Shown one piece after another: positions 6,786 through 60,632 of a stretch of DNA of 64,000 bases. The stretch is taken from the NCBI GenBank assembly GCA_016181845.1, contig JACOYO010000003.1, positions 16,185 through 80,184 on the forward strand, in the 5' to 3' direction. The notes under the pieces are model-generated. The model saw only the letters and a list, made by a program, of their open reading frames with translations, was not told where the DNA came from and made no database searches. Origin of the DNA: Parcubacteria group bacterium (GTDB lineage: Bacteria; Patescibacteriota; Minisyncoccia; Phycocordibacterales; 21-14-all-47-15). The stretch's first letter is position 1, and the number at the start of each line of letters is the position of its first letter. The position numbers and the translations under genes were made by a program.

Positions 6786-7472
6786 TTGGCGAAACCCTTA
6801 ATGAAAGGAAAAACCGCCATGGATAAACAAACCGGTAAATTAATTGCAAAGATAGCGGAGAACCTCCCCGACTTAAACAAGGACACTATGCAGTGGTGGA
6901 TAGAGAATCCGGATGCTCTTAAAAGAACGATCCAAGAATCTTTGCGCCCGCCTGGACAAAATCGTAAATGGCGCGAAAAAAACGGCGTCATCTACTTCTC
7001 GGTCACCAGCGACGGCACGGATGGCCCGGGGTGGATCAAGCGTCTAGAAGATCCGGAAGGCAACGGTTCCAGCCACGTTGATGACAATGCCAGGTGGGTA
7101 CTCCGTTCGCCGGACTTCAAACCGACAAGTGGTGTGACGACCAAGTGCGCTATTCTCAAGGGCACACTCTTCAAGGGCGACCACCGGATCACGAAGAATG
7201 TTCGCGCCGAGGCTGACAAGCGCAAGCTCTCGAAGCCCGACGCCGAACTGGCCTGCCTCATCCGTGAGAAGTTCACGAACAAGGAGATCGAAGCGATGGG
7301 CTTGATGTACATTGTTGCCATGCACGAACCCATCAACGACTCTGGCGGCAATCCGAGCTTGCTGTTCGCACTCTGTGAATACAATGATTGCTGGTTCGGC
7401 GCGCTCAACGACAAGTCTGACAGGTTGTGGCATCGTGAAGGTGGATTCGCCTTCGCCGTGTCGCAGTATTAA
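6786..7472 (+). CDS. hypothetical protein (no recognisable domain); compositionally chimeric
   Basis: 228 aa. Codon usage switches near nt 7030 from AT-rich (AAA Lys) to GC-rich (AAG Lys, GGC, CTC), unlike the neighbouring genes. Confidence 0.45.
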   Translation: MAKPLMKGKTAMDKQTGKLIAKIAENLPDLNKDTMQWWIENPDALKRTIQESLRPPGQNRKWREKNGVIYFSVTSDGTDGPGWIKRLEDPEGNGSSHVDDNARWVLRSPDFKPTSGVTTKCAILKGTLFKGDHRITKNVRAEADKRKLSKPDAELACLIREKFTNKEIEAMGLMYIVAMHEPINDSGGNPSLLFALCEYNDCWFGALNDKSDRLWHREGGFAFAVSQY

Positions 7473-10396: not shown

Positions 10397-11227
10397 ATGA
10401 CACCGGTGTCCGATTTGATTGAACCAAAAGAATTTGATTTTGCAATTGAACAATTGCGCGTGTTTTTTAGGGGAAAAGGATTTATAGAGGTGCCTACGCA
10501 ACATCGTCAGAGCATTCTCGCCGCCTGCGAAGACCCGAGCACCATAGCGACATACACCTACGCAGGACAAACCTGGCCGCTTCCTCAAACTGGACAAATG
10601 TGGCTTGAATATGAATTATTAAAAAATCCTAAAACCCCCGGCTTTTATTGCGTAAGTTACAGTTTCCGCCAAGAGCCAAACCCGATACCCGGCCGTCACG
10701 ACCTCACTTTCCCGATGTTTGAATTTGAACTGAAGGGCGATATGAATAACCTGCTTTCGCTCGAACAAGAACTGATTATTTTTTTGGGAATGAATCGCGG
10801 CATAGAAATAGAGTACAGAGACATAGCCGAAAAATATGGCGTTTCAGAACTCAAGGCAGAACACGAGACGCGCATGGAGAAAGAATTCGGTCCTGTTATT
10901 TTTTTGAAACACTTCCCCATGCGTACGTCGCCTTTTTGGAACATGAAAAATGACGGGGTTGTGGCAAACAAAATTGACGTCATTCTCTACGGCATAGAAA
11001 CCATCGGCTCGGCAGAGCGGAGCGCAGACCCGGAAGAAATGCGGCGGCAATTTTACACCATCAGCGACGGAATGTATGCAAAAATTCTTTTTTCTCATTT
11101 CGTGAAAGAACGGGTTCAAACAGAACTGGGAGTCTTCCTTTCGTCGTTTAAATTTTTCCCGCGATGCGGCGGCGGTATCGGCATGACACGCTTTATCCGC
11201 GCCCTAAAATTGGCGGGCAAATTATAA
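10397..11227 (+). CDS. class-II aminoacyl-tRNA-synthetase catalytic-core paralog lacking an anticodon-binding domain (AsnA/EpmA-like)
   Basis: Start moved to MTPVSD (GGAGG upstream). Motif 2-like FRQEPNPIPGRHDLTFPMFEFE and motif 3-like CGGGIGMTRF. About 276 aa, which is the size of archaeal-type AsnA. Confidence 0.5.
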   Translation: MTPVSDLIEPKEFDFAIEQLRVFFRGKGFIEVPTQHRQSILAACEDPSTIATYTYAGQTWPLPQTGQMWLEYELLKNPKTPGFYCVSYSFRQEPNPIPGRHDLTFPMFEFELKGDMNNLLSLEQELIIFLGMNRGIEIEYRDIAEKYGVSELKAEHETRMEKEFGPVIFLKHFPMRTSPFWNMKNDGVVANKIDVILYGIETIGSAERSADPEEMRRQFYTISDGMYAKILFSHFVKERVQTELGVFLSSFKFFPRCGGGIGMTRFIRALKLAGKL

Positions 11228-11233
11228 AAACAA

Positions 11234-11268
11234 ACGGCTCATTCGCATAAAGCGATGAGCCGTTTTTT
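11234..11268. terminator. bidirectional intrinsic terminator
   Basis: acggctcat-tcgcataaagcg-atgagccgttttt. Confidence 0.55.
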
Positions 11269-11278
11269 AATTTGGATA

Positions 11279-11938
11279 TCAAAATATTTTGTACTTATCT
11301 CCTTCCGCGATTTCGTCAATAAATCCTTTTTCAAGGGCTTCTTCCGCAGAGAAGATGGTGCCGTTTCCGTCATTTGCAAAGGAAAGTTTTTCTATTTCTG
11401 ACAGAGACAATTTGGAATGTTTTTCTAAAATCCTATTCCCGTATTGCTCGTCTTCAGCAAGATATTTTTCTATTTTTCTTATGCGGTTTTTCATACTCGG
11501 ATGATAAACAACCGTAATATCCTTTTCTGACGGGTGTATCAAGAAAAAACTATGCGGCGCCGCGACACGCTTCGTACACCCCTGAAGAACTATCAACGCC
11601 ATGGAAAGACATTTTCGTTCGACAATCCCGACCACTGGCGCTTTCAGGAAAATAGTCAAAAAATCATAAAACGACATTCCGGCATTCACACTTCCTCCGT
11701 CATTATTAATGATAAGAAAAATATCTTTGTCCGGAGAATCTAAGCTCAACTCTATTAAATCGCCCTTGATGCCGCCGGTTTTTTTCTCTGTAATTTCTCC
11801 CGTTAGTAAGACGATTCTTTTTTTCAATAAAACGTGCTTAAATTCCTCATCATCGTCTAGCGATTGAAAATCACCGTCAGAAGTTGCCTCATCCTCATCC
11901 AAATCACCTTCACATAATCTGCGATTTTTCTTTCGCAT
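11279..11938 (-). CDS. ClpP-family serine protease-like protein with an acidic N-terminal extension
   Basis: ...RIVLLTGEI..., ...LIINNDGGSVNAGMSFYDFL..., CLSMALIV (Ser) and FLIHPS (His) line up with the ClpP core. The N-terminus is unusually rich in D/E. Confidence 0.55.
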   Translation of the reverse strand: MRKKNRRLCEGDLDEDEATSDGDFQSLDDDEEFKHVLLKKRIVLLTGEITEKKTGGIKGDLIELSLDSPDKDIFLIINNDGGSVNAGMSFYDFLTIFLKAPVVGIVERKCLSMALIVLQGCTKRVAAPHSFFLIHPSEKDITVVYHPSMKNRIRKIEKYLAEDEQYGNRILEKHSKLSLSEIEKLSFANDGNGTIFSAEEALEKGFIDEIAEGDKYKIF

Positions 11939-12150
11939 ATACCCCCCTGCGTAAGGTTTTACAATGTCCCCTCTTCTCTCTATTTATACCCTACGCCCAG
12001 TTTGAGATAAAGTAAAAGCTCGTCATATAAATAAGCCGTTGCTTTGAAAGATTGTCTAGATTGACAAAATCGTTGTATTGCTTGATTCTTTTAAGTAGTA
12101 CCGTGCTTTTTGACAGCTTTTTACTAACGGAATAATGCGGAGGCAAAAAA

Positions 12151-13455
12151 ATGAGACCATGTTATCGGGTCAAAAGCGGAGTGCTTGATAACGGCCTTCG
12201 TTTTTATACCCAATACGATGATAGTTCTTCAAGAGAAATGGCAGTCCTTGCCGTAAACGTAGGCTCTATCCATGACCCAGACGATAAAAAGGGGCTTGCG
12301 CATACGTTAGAACATGTGATATGCGCAAAAACAAAAAACTTGAGCGCCAAAAGTATTGATGCTTTGTTTGCAAGAAGGATGGGTGGACCGGATGATAATT
12401 TCTTTATTACTACGAGCCGCACCTGCACAACATACGGTCCGGCAGATTACTTAAAAAAATCTCACAGCCAGGAGCTTTTTAAAATTTTTGCCGAGATGAT
12501 ACGAAATCCGATACTCTCAACCGACATCAAAAAAATCGAGCAAGCGGCAATCAATCAGGAACATTATCTGCGCGGGGAAGATATCGCGGAAATTTATATC
12601 GTGGATATCTTGTATGGCATACTCTTCTCCAAAAGCCCTGTCGGCTACCCTGTGGACGGTGTCATGCCTGACGTGCGAAATATTCGCATAAAAGACTTGA
12701 GAAACCACGCCGAAAGATTTTATAGGCCGTCAAACACATTCGTTGTATACTTGGGGCCAAAACACACCGAGGCCCGAAAAATAATAAACGATGCTCTTGG
12801 AGATTGGGGGTTGAAGCATGCGCCAGACACACCAGGGTTAGACGACTTGTTCATGCAACCATTCGCTCCGCTGGCGAAGTCAATGCTCACGACCATCAAG
12901 TGTCGCGGCATCCGTCAATGGCATGTTTGCATCGGGCTTCCGACTGAACCATATAGGAATGACGCCACGGCGCTTGATATTCTTGCGCGAATTCTTTCTG
13001 ACCGCCTCTACCATCGGCTTCGCACAGAAAATATACGCTGGAAACAAGGCGTGTATCGCGCTCCAGTATGGACTGAACACACATTTGCTCATGGGCTTTT
13101 CGCATCGCACTTTGCGACGCTAGATGGAGATTTCGTGCCGCGCATCATTGATACATTTCAAAAGGAATGTATGCGCTTGGGCGAAACACTCATCAGCCGC
13201 GAGGAGATTGAGACATGGGTCGGTTTTATGTACGATTACGAGTTTATGGATTGTTTTCAGAGGTCCCCGGGTAATTTGACCGACATGATTATTGACGCGG
13301 TGTCAAACGGCGACACCGACCTTGCGGAATTACACCAGCGCGGTGAAAAGCTTCTTAGTTTCCGCACGCAAGGAGGGAGAAAAATGCTCCGTGATATATC
13401 TCGGAAATATCTCGGCAATACCGCGACAGTAATCATGAAACCGGAGCCAGCATAA
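12151..13455 (+). CDS. M16-family (insulinase/pitrilysin-like) zinc peptidase
   Basis: The inverted zinc motif HxxEH appears as GLAHTLEHVIC. 434 aa. Confidence 0.8.
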   Translation: MRPCYRVKSGVLDNGLRFYTQYDDSSSREMAVLAVNVGSIHDPDDKKGLAHTLEHVICAKTKNLSAKSIDALFARRMGGPDDNFFITTSRTCTTYGPADYLKKSHSQELFKIFAEMIRNPILSTDIKKIEQAAINQEHYLRGEDIAEIYIVDILYGILFSKSPVGYPVDGVMPDVRNIRIKDLRNHAERFYRPSNTFVVYLGPKHTEARKIINDALGDWGLKHAPDTPGLDDLFMQPFAPLAKSMLTTIKCRGIRQWHVCIGLPTEPYRNDATALDILARILSDRLYHRLRTENIRWKQGVYRAPVWTEHTFAHGLFASHFATLDGDFVPRIIDTFQKECMRLGETLISREEIETWVGFMYDYEFMDCFQRSPGNLTDMIIDAVSNGDTDLAELHQRGEKLLSFRTQGGRKMLRDISRKYLGNTATVIMKPEPA

Positions 13456-58484: not shown

Positions 58485-58994
58485 TTACCGCCCTGCTTTC
58501 TGCTGTTGTTTATACACAAAAAACCACAGATAGAGCGTAATGAGCAAAACGATATCGGGAATAAAAATTATCGGTTCCGACCAGGGAATGCCGTTGACTT
58601 CAAAATGAGAAACTGGCCAGAGGAACGGCGTCGGAAAAAAGGCGTATGAATGCGTGCCGATATCAAAAAGAATGTGGAGACCCCACGCGTACATCGGCAA
58701 AAACGGTTTGCCGAGCAATTTCCACACAATTAAAAATACAACGGCAAAAATAATAATACTGTGCGTGACATTATATAATTGCACTATATACTCGGGAATC
58801 ACTACGGTGCTCGGCGGCTCAACACCATTATTGAAATGCGGGAAGACCGCAAAACCAAAAAGCGCTACAACAAAAAATATCCCGAATGAAAATAAATCTG
58901 GCGCAATACCGAAGAAAAATGACTGCCAAAACTGGCGGCGTGTTCGCCTGCCAAACGCAAGCGACCCCCATAACCCGTGAGAAAGAATGTCCAT
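58485..58994 (-). CDS. YdjM-like membrane-bound metal-dependent hydrolase (DUF457)
   Basis: MDILSHGLWGSL... N-terminus and His-rich TM segments are typical of DUF457. Confidence 0.5.
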   Translation of the reverse strand: MDILSHGLWGSLAFGRRTRRQFWQSFFFGIAPDLFSFGIFFVVALFGFAVFPHFNNGVEPPSTVVIPEYIVQLYNVTHSIIIFAVVFLIVWKLLGKPFLPMYAWGLHILFDIGTHSYAFFPTPFLWPVSHFEVNGIPWSEPIIFIPDIVLLITLYLWFFVYKQQQKAGR

Positions 58995-59059
58995 GGTTTA
59001 ATTATATCCTATTTTAGTCCACCAATCATAACTCCTGCGAAGGACGGTCCTTCACGGAT

Positions 59060-59099
59060 TTCGGAGCCTAAGTTGTTCTAACTGCCCGACAGGGATTCG
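59060..59099. repeat. 40-bp direct repeat copy 1 containing a 19-bp copy of the tRNA-Gln 3' end
   Basis: tcggagcctaagttgttctaactgcccgacagggattcg; identical copy at 59250-59289. Confidence 0.6.
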
Positions 59100-59249
59100 G
59101 TCACAAATAATTTTTTTACAAAAAATTTTCGCGACCCCGGCTCGGCCTCGACTTCTCCGCTTCGCTACGAAGTCGGCTTCGCGGCCTGCGCCTTTCTCAT
59201 CCCTGCGGCGCAGAGAACACCGAGAACACCCAAGTCTCCAATGCTCCGC

Positions 59250-59289
59250 ATCGGAGCCTAAGTTGTTCTAACTGCCCGACAGGGATTCG
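59250..59289. repeat. 40-bp direct repeat copy 2 (tRNA-Gln 3'-end fragment)
   Basis: Identical to 59060-59099. An inverted TTCGAATCCCTG fragment also lies at 59369-59380. Confidence 0.6.
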
Positions 59290-59430
59290 AACATTACATG
59301 TTCAGTACAGGTTTCCCATTTTTTCGCCATGCTTGCGAGCATGCCTCAAAAATATGGGAGAACCTTTTCGAATCCCTGACGAAAGTGCCATCGGGCACTT
59401 TCTTCCGTCATTTCTTCGCTTCGCTCCGAA

Positions 59431-59501
59431 CTGCCCGACAGGGATTCGAACCCCAATTAACGGCTTCAAAGGCCGCTGTCCTACCATTAGACGATCGGGC
59501 A
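59431..59501 (-). tRNA. tRNA-Gln (anticodon UUG)
   Basis: Manual fold of the reverse complement. Acceptor UGCCCGA/UCGGGCA has U1:A72, as in bacterial tRNA-Gln. D-stem GUCU/GGAC; anticodon stem GCGGC/GCCGU with loop CUUUGAA; T-arm UGGGG-UUCGAAU-CCCUG; discriminator G; CCA not encoded. Confidence 0.7.
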
Positions 59502-59506
59502 ACAAA

Positions 59507-60559
59507 TTATTTTTCTTCTTTTTCTTCGCCTGCTATACGTATGAGTGCCAACTCAAGCGGCAATTCCGGAATGACAAATTTTCCGACCGACTGATACGCG
59601 GTGATAAGCTCCGAGAGCACTGCTGAATTGAGCGCCGCGGTCTTGTCTTTCGCCAAGCTCTCCGCAAACGCAAAGTCTTCGGCGGTCAATTCTTCTATAA
59701 TCGCCTCTTTCATATCCGTCGCGAAACGAAGCAAAAGCGCCGCGCGGAGCTTCTGCAAGATTAAATAAAGATAGAGCTTCATGTCAATACCGGCGCTTGC
59801 CGCCTTGCGCGCCGAGGCAATCCCCATACTTGCGTCTTTCCCCGCCACGGCTTTCACAAAATCATTCACTAATTCCGACGACGGCGCGCCGGTTATCATT
59901 TCAACATGCGCGTGCGGGATTTTTTTGCCTTCAGCCGAGCCAAGCACTTTTTGCAAAACGCCCTGCGCGTCGCGGAACGACCCTTCGCCCAAAAGCGCTA
60001 TCAGATCGGCCGACGCGCTCTCAAGCTTCACCCCTTCCTCTTCCGCCACTTTCGCAATCATTTTTTTCAAGATTGATTGTGTCGGCTTTTTGAAATGGTA
60101 GGTCTGACAGCGCGACACGATAGTTTCTGGCAGTTTGTGTAGTTCGGTCGTTGCCAAGATAAACACGGCGTGTGCCGGCGGCTCTTCTAGCGTCTTCAAC
60201 AGCGCGTTGAACGCTTCTTTGGTGAGCATATGTACTTCGTCAATAATGTAGACTTTGTATGGCGACTCAAACGGAAACGTACGCACTGATTCGCGCAATT
60301 CGCGGATATCATCAATCCCGCGGGTAGACGCCGCATCCATCTCATAGCAATCTTTGTCGGTGCACCCGATAGTCCGTGCCACAATCCGCGCGATGCTCGT
60401 CTTGCCCGTGCCTCGGGGCCCAGCAAAAAGATAAGCGTGGGCAATCTTGCCGGAAGCAAGCGCCCGCTCAAGGCCAGCGACCACATGTTCCTGCCCCAGC
60501 ACTTCTTTGAAGTTTTCTGGGCGATATTTGCGATATAATGCCAGTGCTATGTCAGCCAT
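59507..60559 (-). CDS. dnaX: DNA polymerase III subunit gamma/tau, short form (domains I-III)
   Basis: Start moved to MADIALALYRKYRP. Contains ...GQEHV...GKIAHAYLFAGPRGTGKTS (Walker A), DEVHML (Walker B) and the SRCQ box. About 350 aa. Confidence 0.85.
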   Translation of the reverse strand: MADIALALYRKYRPENFKEVLGQEHVVAGLERALASGKIAHAYLFAGPRGTGKTSIARIVARTIGCTDKDCYEMDAASTRGIDDIRELRESVRTFPFESPYKVYIIDEVHMLTKEAFNALLKTLEEPPAHAVFILATTELHKLPETIVSRCQTYHFKKPTQSILKKMIAKVAEEEGVKLESASADLIALLGEGSFRDAQGVLQKVLGSAEGKKIPHAHVEMITGAPSSELVNDFVKAVAGKDASMGIASARKAASAGIDMKLYLYLILQKLRAALLLRFATDMKEAIIEELTAEDFAFAESLAKDKTAALNSAVLSELITAYQSVGKFVIPELPLELALIRIAGEEKEEK

Positions 60560-60632
60560 AACCGCCAGTATAACAAAAAAAACCGCACTTTTGAATGGTG
60601 CTGGGAGCGCCATTCAAAAGTGCGGCGTGTCT

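Follow-up and report, generated by a model that had tools for sequence, protein, structure and literature searches.

tRNA-Gln Gene and Copies of Its 3' End

In the present study, we analyzed a 64,000-nucleotide stretch of DNA from a Parcubacteria group bacterium (contig JACOYO010000003.1; hereafter, the window), in which a tRNA-Gln gene is followed by copies of its own 3' end and by two putative miniature mobile units, referred to here as units A and B. ARAGORN and Rfam detected a single tRNA gene in the window, tRNA-Gln(UUG), on the minus strand at 59431-59501 (59430/31-59501/02 according to the two programs; Rfam tRNA score of 61.7 bits). The gene was intact, and its CCA end was not encoded. 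It was located directly 3' of the short dnaX gene (59507-60613, minus strand, identified by Pfam), starting 5 nt past the dnaX stop codon.

An exact search of the window located the 20-mer AACTGCCCGACAGGGATTCG three times in one orientation, at 59080, 59270 and 59429, while the expected number of copies was 0 (100 shuffles, up to three mismatches). A fourth copy was not found in the 64 kb, even with three mismatches allowed. A first-pass annotation of this DNA had reported three same-orientation copies within 400 bp, the third of them in the gene itself, and this was borne out. The repeat had been described as the 3' 19 nt of the tRNA; it is real, but the 20-mer consisted of 18 nt of the tRNA (C56-G73) and two flanking nucleotides. 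The shared segment began midway through the T-loop and ended at the discriminator base, and all three core copies were free of mutations: copy 1, which is the tRNA's own C56-G73 (CGAATCCCTGTCGGGCAG, 59431-59448, identified by sequence and exact-match search), and the exact C56-G73 copies 2 (59272-59289) and 3 (59082-59099), all on the minus strand. The repeats had also been said to precede tRNA-Gln. They do adjoin it, but since tRNA-Gln is on the minus strand, they lie downstream (3') of it, between tRNA-Gln and a minus-strand gene at 58485-58994.

The duplicated blocks differed in length. Copy 2 had 22 nt in common with the tRNA, comprising T54-G73 and the next two bases (TT), which gave a 22-nt direct repeat around the insert of unit A (59270-59291 and its partner 59429-59450, minus strand). 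Copies 2 and 3 were each part of a 39-nt direct repeat with 100% identity (59061-59099 and its partner 59251-59289, minus strand) around a 151-nt B insert; the annotation had correctly called these blocks identical but had given their length as 40. The 39-mer consisted of the core C56-G73 and 21 nt of host-specific flank (TTAGAACAACTTAGGCTCCGA), and its non-tRNA 19-mer occurred only at these two sites in the window. An inverted fragment, TTCGAATCCCTGACG, had been noted at 59369. It was present as 15 nt with one mismatch, although its position was 59367-59381.

In an independent Logan assembly of the same organism, contig L003 started inside copy 3, which is consistent with a real repeat. The Logan short-read contigs of this organism and its relatives broke inside tRNA-Gln or the repeat: L001, L002, L005 and L006 ended inside tRNA-Gln, and L003 started inside the 39-mer. 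The repeats systematically interrupt short-read assemblies at precisely this tRNA gene, a point that bears on how good metagenome-assembled genomes are. A 27-mer of core and flank, used to search metagenome contigs for an empty site or attP, gave 0 matches, and no empty site for the window's own species was found in this search. The inverted-copy 15-mer had 24 matches in viral contigs, all of which fell by chance within phage genes unrelated to the repeat. When the region was compared with phages by BLAST, only phage tRNA-Gln genes were returned.

Units A and B

Unit A was a type-A module of 159 nt (59272-59430, minus strand), supported by homologous modules and covariation. In the tRNA sense, a short leader starting with CGGAGC came first, then hairpin Pa (59381-59402) and an incomplete inverted core (CGTCAGGGATTCGAA, 59367-59381). 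These were followed by the long hairpin Pb (59315-59358), the conserved motif CCTGTACTGAAC, hairpin Pc (GAACAT-GTA-ATGTTC, 59289-59303) and core copy 2, with which the unit closed; all of the positioned elements were on the minus strand. The 5' acceptor-like part was missing from this module. Homologues of unit A were found at loci L023, L051, L069, L102, L085, L021, L027 and L106.

Unit B was a type-B module of 190 nt (59082-59271, minus strand), supported in the same way. It comprised an imperfect hairpin (59223-59269), an inverted core (CTGCGCCGCAGGGATGAGAAAG, 59192-59213), a GC-rich hairpin, the motif GAGCCGGGGTCGCG (around 59130-59143), an AT-rich hairpin (59105-59129) and GTGAC (59100-59104) directly before core copy 3, again on the minus strand. 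Homologues were found at L020, L023, L051, L062, L063, L075, L081, L087, L103, L114, L117 and L121, as well as behind tRNA-Asp at L111.

Type A adjoined tRNA-Gln and type B was distal, and the two units were unrelated in sequence. Both inserts started with (T)GCGGAGC, which also opened several other units and was found near the junction of the serine-recombinase elements in the Lloydbacteria-like group. No open reading frames (ORFs) were found in either unit, and neither promoters nor terminators were detected when the window region was scanned for them. A search against Rfam 15 with E-values up to 1 matched only the tRNA in the window region and in 11 module-bearing loci. The module motifs had no other copy in the 64 kb.

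Module Families in Patescibacteria

Metagenome contigs were scanned with the last 20 nt of tRNA-Gln, which yielded 113 loci; after removal of duplicates, 95 non-redundant loci contained a full tRNA-Gln with this 3' end. An extra copy was defined as the 18-mer with at most three mismatches within 5 kb, and modules were analyzed by regular expressions and alignments. At least one extra copy was observed in 26 of the 95 loci. The extra copies were one-sided, with 30 downstream against 1 upstream, and similar lengths were searched (201 kb and 212 kb, respectively). Among the 75 loci having at least 300 nt of downstream sequence, 22 had a copy within 300 nt.

The DNA between copies was not arbitrary but sorted into three families, A, B and C, which occurred in distant contigs and behind both tRNA-Gln(UUG) and tRNA-Gln(CUG). 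Type A contained a split inverted tRNA end, CTGCCCGACA and GGGGGATTCGAA with a small hairpin between them, followed by AAAGC, a long variable hairpin, GGTGTACTGAAC, the hairpin GAACNN-GTA-NNGTTC and the direct copy. Type B showed the order CGACAGGGAT(TC/GA)GAAAG, hairpin, GAGnCGGGGTCGCG, AT-rich hairpin, GTGAC and direct copy. Type C was about 70-85 nt long and contained TTCGAGGAA. The 3' end of every module coincided with the mature tRNA 3' end (G73), and the 5' end of complete modules opened with the tRNA's own acceptor 5' strand. Strong intrinsic-terminator-like hairpins usually separated the tRNA from the module. No description of the A, B or C modules was found in our literature searches; these families are undescribed.

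Another type of unit was observed at L101 (2395-4307), L106 and L125. It consisted of about 50 nt (CAATGnACA...CACTC...) and a partial tRNA-Gln copy from the D-arm (GTAGGAC...) to the 3' end. At L101, a sense-oriented serine-recombinase gene followed this unit.

Conserved Fold of the Modules

The alignment of nine type-A modules contained 39 predicted pairs, with 90% of cells paired. Compensatory double changes were observed in 24 of the 39 pairs, and none of 500 shuffles matched these values by any measure. When the structures were slid by 1-3 columns, pairing was only 34-54%. For type B (nine modules, one of them behind tRNA-Asp), 13 pairs were predicted with 95.7% of cells paired, and the covariation score was 0.459 versus 0.19 in shuffles. 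The helix GGUCG/UGACC of type B contained an invariant G.U pair, and its last pair used C56. The 370-nt interval of the window folded with a z-score of -10 against shuffles.

Folding favored the tRNA-sense over the antisense strand in 23 of 25 units (8 of 9 for type A, 15 of 16 for type B), and G.U pairs were more numerous on the sense strand, which indicated that structure was selected on one strand. The selected strand could be an RNA made in the direction of the tRNA or the corresponding single DNA strand.

Modules behind Other tRNAs

Modules of the same architecture were found behind tRNA-Phe (L087), tRNA-Asp (L111) and tRNA-Thr (L079), and in each case the inverted copy matched the host tRNA. 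The direct copy matched the host tRNA over the full 18 nt only for tRNA-Phe, and over 7 nt for tRNA-Asp and 4 nt for tRNA-Thr. Behind tRNA-Phe(GAA), a terminator hairpin was followed by the inverted tRNA-Phe end, TGCTTGGGA and GTGCAGGCTCGAA with a hairpin between them; the B-like body ended with TTTGTGACCGTCAGGAC and was followed by CGAGCCTGCTCCCAAGCA, which is C56-A73 of tRNA-Phe. Behind tRNA-Asp(GTC), there were two B bodies, the second of which opened with a hairpin-split inverted tRNA-Asp end. The tail of this second body, CGCGAAAATTTTCGAAGAAAATTATTTGTGAC followed by CAAGTCC, was nearly identical to that of the window's unit B, CGCGAAAATTTTTTGTAAAAAAATTATTTGTGAC followed by CGAATCCC. The likeness held through GTGAC and the following C, and the L111 sequence turned to tRNA-Asp at C56. 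Behind tRNA-Thr(GGU), an A-like module with an inverted tRNA-Thr end was truncated in the T-loop.

For every tRNA seen, the junction was thus in the T-loop at about C56. That the direct copy follows the host tRNA is to be expected if the copy represents the native end after its displacement. The matching of the inverted copy is the most informative and least explained feature, since it is not required for tRNA repair.

Insertion Polymorphism and Cargo

Close relatives differed by whole units. With T denoting the tRNA and A, B and C the modules in order downstream, one set of relatives showed T-B (L020), T-A-B (L023) and T-A-A (L104, with identical tandem units), and a second set showed T-B (L087), T-A-B (L051) and T-A followed by another element (L069). 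In a clade with a recognizable native flank, L118 was empty, L102 carried A and L062 carried B; at the two occupied loci, homology to the native flank resumed exactly at G73+1 after the last copy. This flank contained a conserved element 3' of tRNA-Gln with the sequence ...ATTGCAyACCTGCTGAGAGCAGT... and then a strong terminator hairpin, located at about 4850-5068 of L118 (minus strand) and past the last core copy at L102, L062, L017 and L064. The element might be a small RNA gene.

Several units carried cargo. The unit of L075 was 3.7 kb long and contained a kinase-like gene and an LD-carboxypeptidase gene, followed by B, while that of L076 contained an MFS transporter gene, followed by C; neither of these cargo units encoded a recombinase. 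A larger unit at L028 contained a 207-aa ORF, and a GIY-YIG gene was located between copies at L089. Truncated and fused module forms (L085, L117 and L025) were also observed, which is typical of mobile DNA.

The repeat length varied among loci (18, 20-22, 39 and 51 nt).

Serine-Recombinase Elements at tRNA-Gln

Among 150 ORFs downstream of tRNA-Gln loci, the large serine recombinase was the only enriched recombinase, and tblastn detected it in 10 of 114 loci. The family had more than 2000 matches in Patescibacteria. Serine-recombinase elements occupied tRNA-Gln at L007, L035, L069, L083 and L154-L162, and the element of L069 directly followed a type-A module. At every locus fetched by protein (L154, L155-L157 and L158-L162), the recombinase frame ran 49-61 nt into the convergent tRNA-Gln, so that the last 16-20 recombinase codons were the antisense strand of the tRNA-Gln gene. 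The recombinase genes were located at 5567-7086 of L154, 10001-11520 of L155/L156 and 10001-11520 of L158. The gene before the recombinase encoded a rolling-circle Rep (Pfam Phage_CRI or REP_ORF2-G2P; PHROG 702, 3419), which was replaced by a primase-polymerase at L035. The combination of recombinase and Rep represents small integrative replicons dedicated to tRNA-Gln. At L158, a defence island (DpnI, Mrr, ThsB-TIR, BsaWI) adjoined the element.

The element of L007 (Candidatus Lloydbacteria JACROH010000008; dnaX 89% identical) was located at 11136-12837, where a 502-aa large serine recombinase in antisense orientation directly followed tRNA-Gln. It was flanked by two copies of an inverted repeat about 110 bp long (11190-11300 and 12720-12837); recombinase residues 451-486 were encoded by the left copy, and the contig ended in the right one.

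The large serine recombinase, an integrase family dedicated to tRNA-Gln, was considered as the mobilizer of the modules and was rejected as a demonstrated one, because its elements contained neither A or B modules nor, within 10 kb, a second copy of the tRNA end. We therefore regarded these elements as another occupant of the tRNA-Gln site, independent of the modules. Large-serine-recombinase attL/attR sites are marked by an abutting gene and a very short identity. Both marks were present in the elements of the relatives but not in the window units, which had 18-39-nt repeats and no large serine recombinase. tblastn gave no serine-recombinase match in the window.

Interpretation of the Units

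We lean slightly towards the interpretation that the interval 59061-59430 consists of two miniature, gene-less, non-autonomous mobile units that were inserted successively by site-specific recombination at the T-loop. The recombination junction would lie in the T-loop of tRNA-Gln, at about C56. Each unit would supply a replacement of the last 18 nt of the tRNA, so that the tRNA-Gln gene would stay intact. As the old 3' end would be pushed downstream, the newest unit would adjoin the tRNA and the displaced ends would persist as direct repeats. We infer from this arrangement that type B probably came in first and type A later. The empty site in this species would be tRNA-Gln joined directly to TTAGAACAACTTAGGCTCCGAAATCC. 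Each unit combines an imperfect inverted copy of the tRNA segment with conserved hairpins, and this folded module may serve as the cis-acting recombination site of the element, in the form of folded single-stranded DNA or possibly RNA. The mobilizing enzyme would have to act in trans, as the window does not encode it.

Several results weigh against this interpretation. The searches found no free copy of the att sequence, and the 39-mer, 20-mer and 18-mer had 0 matches in viral contigs. With regard to the enzyme, Pfam detected no recombinase domain in the genes at 51-63 kb, tyrosine integrases were not enriched among the 150 ORFs downstream of the tRNA-Gln loci, and the serine-recombinase elements are probably not the mobilizer, since they produce no duplication of the tRNA end. 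The duplicated block varied at its outer end, lying +0, +2 to +4, +21 (the 39-mer of the window's unit B) or +33 nt (L028) past G73, and the +2 to +4 ends were host-specific bases (CGAG, CAAC, CTCG and CAT). A fixed attP does not predict such a variable and partly host-specific end, which suggests that the elements carry a locally adapted flank or that the duplication is partly made from the target. Circles of 160-200 bp are awkward, poor substrates for double-stranded site-specific recombination. The interpretation does not account for the change of both element ends on a switch of tRNA, and covariation biased to one strand is also compatible with a transcribed RNA that serves the host. Taken with the strand-specific fold and the inverted copy, the variable outer end, the (T)GCGGAGC start of both inserts and the small circles leave a rather low probability for a mechanism with a hairpin substrate or a guide.

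Such a mechanism underlies a doubtful alternative, in which the modules are sites for structure-dependent recombination, either as a single-stranded hairpin attP, where the inverted copy pairs with the direct copy and mimics the duplex of the tRNA gene's 3' end, or through guide pairing with the target. The inverted and direct copies, about 100 nt apart, close a strand-specific covarying fold, and either form would explain the inverted copies retargeted at tRNA-Phe, tRNA-Asp and tRNA-Thr. The cassette-like arrays, with cargo and then module, are in line with this alternative, as are the rolling-circle-Rep elements, with their single-stranded DNA stages, at the same tRNA in relatives. However, these Rep elements had no modules, a partner enzyme was not found, neither an integron integrase nor an attC consensus was present, and the argument is drawn purely from anatomy. 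Along the same lines, we suggest only tentatively, as a rather unlikely possibility, that modules A, B and C act as cis-sites for a retargetable insertion system not described before, in which a folded single strand of DNA or RNA bears the inverted copy of about 18 nt of the tRNA end and thereby specifies insertion at the T-loop; a changed inverted copy would then shift the element from tRNA-Gln to tRNA-Phe, tRNA-Asp or tRNA-Thr. It is likewise possible, though we would not expect it, that each module is a gene for a structured non-coding RNA, linked to a tRNA gene and made on the tRNA-sense strand. The closing helix of inverted and direct copy would mimic the acceptor/T-arm stack, and the RNA would be processed by RNase P, RNase Z and the CCA-adding enzyme; the repeat would serve the RNA function, and mobility would be secondary. 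The covarying helices argue for such genes, as do the greater stability of the sense strand in 23 of 25 units, its additional G.U pairs and the invariant G.U pair. Module 3' ends at G73, the acceptor 5' strand that opens complete modules and the inverted copy that tracks the identity of the host tRNA also fit. On the other hand, intrinsic-terminator-like hairpins usually stood between tRNA and module, no promoter-like site was found in the window region, no Rfam family matched, and module A of the window had no 5' acceptor-like part. Modules were present at only 27% of tRNA-Gln loci, and their presence/absence, tandem, truncated and fused forms are unlike those of a needed RNA. This alternative would be compatible with the interpretation as mobile units if the mobile element encodes the RNA.

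The first-pass annotation had read the copies as passive integration scars, that is, as the attL/attR ends left behind when larger islands carried by an integrase lost their interiors, with 53-59 kb possibly as a leftover. We regard this as improbable. The att-type duplication itself held, with a T-loop-to-3'-end identity block, which is the classic tRNA att signature, an intact tRNA at one end, copies downstream and exact occupied and empty sites in relatives. Tandem accretion with partial tRNAs is documented for tycheposons, and cargo-bearing units occur in relatives. However, each copy ended a complete, conserved and covarying structured module of 160-200 nt that recurred in distant lineages; the 140-150-nt interiors formed conserved families with compensatory changes across distant lineages and different tRNAs, and the three copies were mutation-free. 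The proposed island at 53-59 kb was not supported either: it had no bounding core copy and a core-like neighbor, the phylum-conserved 169-aa gene that adjoins the repeats. A distal att copy and an integrase had been suggested as a check, and neither was found in the 64-kb window, which contained no fourth copy. The dnaX/tRNA-Gln junction, suspected of being interrupted, was intact and conserved in relatives, and the insertions were on the other side of the tRNA. The arrangement was not uniform across relatives, with units present or absent by locus. A purely local origin, with tandem duplications made by slippage or unequal crossing-over and no part played by a mobile element, is highly improbable. 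The identical 39-mers 190 nt apart and the identical tandem units of L104 would be accounted for, but units A and B of the window were unrelated in sequence, and the same modules with the same junction occurred in unrelated genomes and behind other tRNAs, which largely refutes this origin.

Comparison with Known Systems

Compared with known systems, the units are probably a novel variant of tRNA-targeting integrative elements, notable for their cis-structure and retargetable inverted copy. Williams is said to have classified tRNA integration sites in 2002 with a T-loop sublocation class. The window shares with T-loop-class att sites the T-loop-to-3'-end block, the intact tRNA at one end, the displaced fragment at the other and the downstream stacking. 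Unlike the islands, prophages and integrative and conjugative elements (ICEs) of this class, the window units were 160-200 nt long and contained no gene and no integrase; their modules also had an extra inverted att copy, a covarying fold and a variable outer repeat end. Cis-mobilizable elements (CIMEs) are bounded by att sites, lack an integrase, are mobilized in trans and form tandem arrays; they are kilobase-sized deletion derivatives of a recognizable ICE. The window units resemble them in being bounded by att repeats, in having no recombination genes, in their tandem arrangement and in their presumed mobilization in trans, but no autonomous parent was found for the modules, and the interior is a conserved structured module. 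Miniature inverted-repeat transposable elements are recognized by target-site duplications of fixed length and by dispersed copies, whereas the repeats here varied in length and no dispersed copies were found in the 64 kb.

Integron cassettes carry attC sites, which are imperfect inverted repeats of 60-150 nt in which the structure of one strand is conserved over sequence. CTX-phi uses a single-stranded hairpin attP, whose folded stem reproduces the target duplex (dif). The modules resemble integron cassettes in forming arrays at a fixed site, with optional cargo and a strand-specific folded module at the 3' end, and this is a resemblance only. In contrast to integrons and CTX-phi, no IntI was located next to the site, there was no dif/XerCD site, and 18 nt were shared with an essential tRNA gene; the core CGAATCCCTGTCGGGCAG contained no boxes of the attC consensus R''(RYYYAAC)/R'(GTTRRRY). 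The use of single-stranded DNA, which is part of the CTX-phi and attC systems, is only presumed at the modules.

Tycheposons, which occur with their remnants in Prochlorococcus islands, carry cargo behind tRNA genes with partial tRNAs in between, and new arrivals push older ones outward; degenerate remnants persist in these streamlined genomes (10.1101/2020.12.28.424599). The accretion of the modules matches this pattern. A tycheposon brings its own recombinase, a tyrosine recombinase or in rare cases a large serine recombinase, together with replication genes, and structured gene-less modules with inverted att copies are not described for them (10.1101/2020.12.28.424599). The serine-recombinase replicons and the modules share the tRNA-Gln 3' end as a landing site, but the replicons encode a recombinase and Rep or primase-polymerase and make no tRNA-end duplication.

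Patescibacteria have tiny, streamlined genomes, and little is known of their DNA exchange. The present data suggest that tRNA 3' ends are hot spots of insertion, mainly at tRNA-Gln but also at tRNA-Phe, tRNA-Asp and tRNA-Thr. Two kinds of tenant were observed: self-sufficient replicons with serine recombinase and Rep, and much smaller, gene-less structured modules that sometimes ferry cargo. If mobile, the modules would rank with the smallest known integrative elements. Both ends of a module match the target tRNA, which raises a testable question on how target specificity is encoded. A retargetable system, if true, would represent structure- or base-pair-guided integration, analogous to the attC and CTX-phi hairpins or to guide-RNA recombinases.

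Neighboring Genes

The dnaX product was 87-95% identical to proteins named Candidatus Lloydbacteria, and the dnaX/tRNA-Gln linkage was kept in the relatives L005, L006, L007 and L154. Upstream of tRNA-Gln, dnaX was accompanied by a DDAH-like gene and a beta-eliminating lyase gene. According to Pfam, the genes at 51-63 kb encoded a methyltransferase, a pseudouridine synthase, a polysaccharide deacetylase with DUF4015, a GT2 glycosyltransferase and proteins of unknown type, in addition to DnaX, the DDAH-like protein and the beta-eliminating lyase.

The next minus-strand gene 3' of the repeats (58485-58994) encodes a 169-aa YbcI/DUF457-like membrane protein, which is conserved phylum-wide in Patescibacteria with 55-63% identity; the gene is not part of the element. 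Its closest relative found was at L151 (85% amino-acid and 82% nucleotide identity). Nucleotide homology between the window and L151 ran leftwards from about 59019. At L151, the upstream neighbor of the 169-aa gene was a different gene and the tRNA was absent, so that synteny breaks at 59020-59060.

At 4829-5197 of L004 (Candidatus Lloydbacteria JACROG010000038; dnaX 95% identical), the first 21 nt of tRNA-Gln, TGCCCGATCGTCTAATGGTAG, were followed by unrelated sequence with a perfect hairpin and a 50-aa GIY-YIG ORF (Pfam, 1.6e-14), and ARAGORN called no tRNA there. This represents either a D-loop insertion or a chimeric contig. The longer partial tRNA copies at L101, L106 and L125 (GTAGGAC...) start at the position of this break point.

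At 4230-5070 of L005, a 226-aa Y1 (RAYT/IS200-like) transposase gene was located between palindromes (ACTTAGGGGTTCTACCCCTAAGT) resembling repetitive extragenic palindromes (REPs). We considered the flank of the window's 39-mer as a REP-like palindrome akin to those of L005 and rejected it, as only the 10-mer ACAACTTAGG was common; no REP-like palindromes of the L005 kind were found in the window. The transposase gene and a 125-aa ORF of L005 were an insertion relative to L006. At L154, 24 nt from the 5' part of tRNA-Gln were repeated exactly at 7210-7233, in the same orientation as the gene and 124 nt upstream of it; this duplication was on the 5' side, unlike the 3' copies at the window locus.

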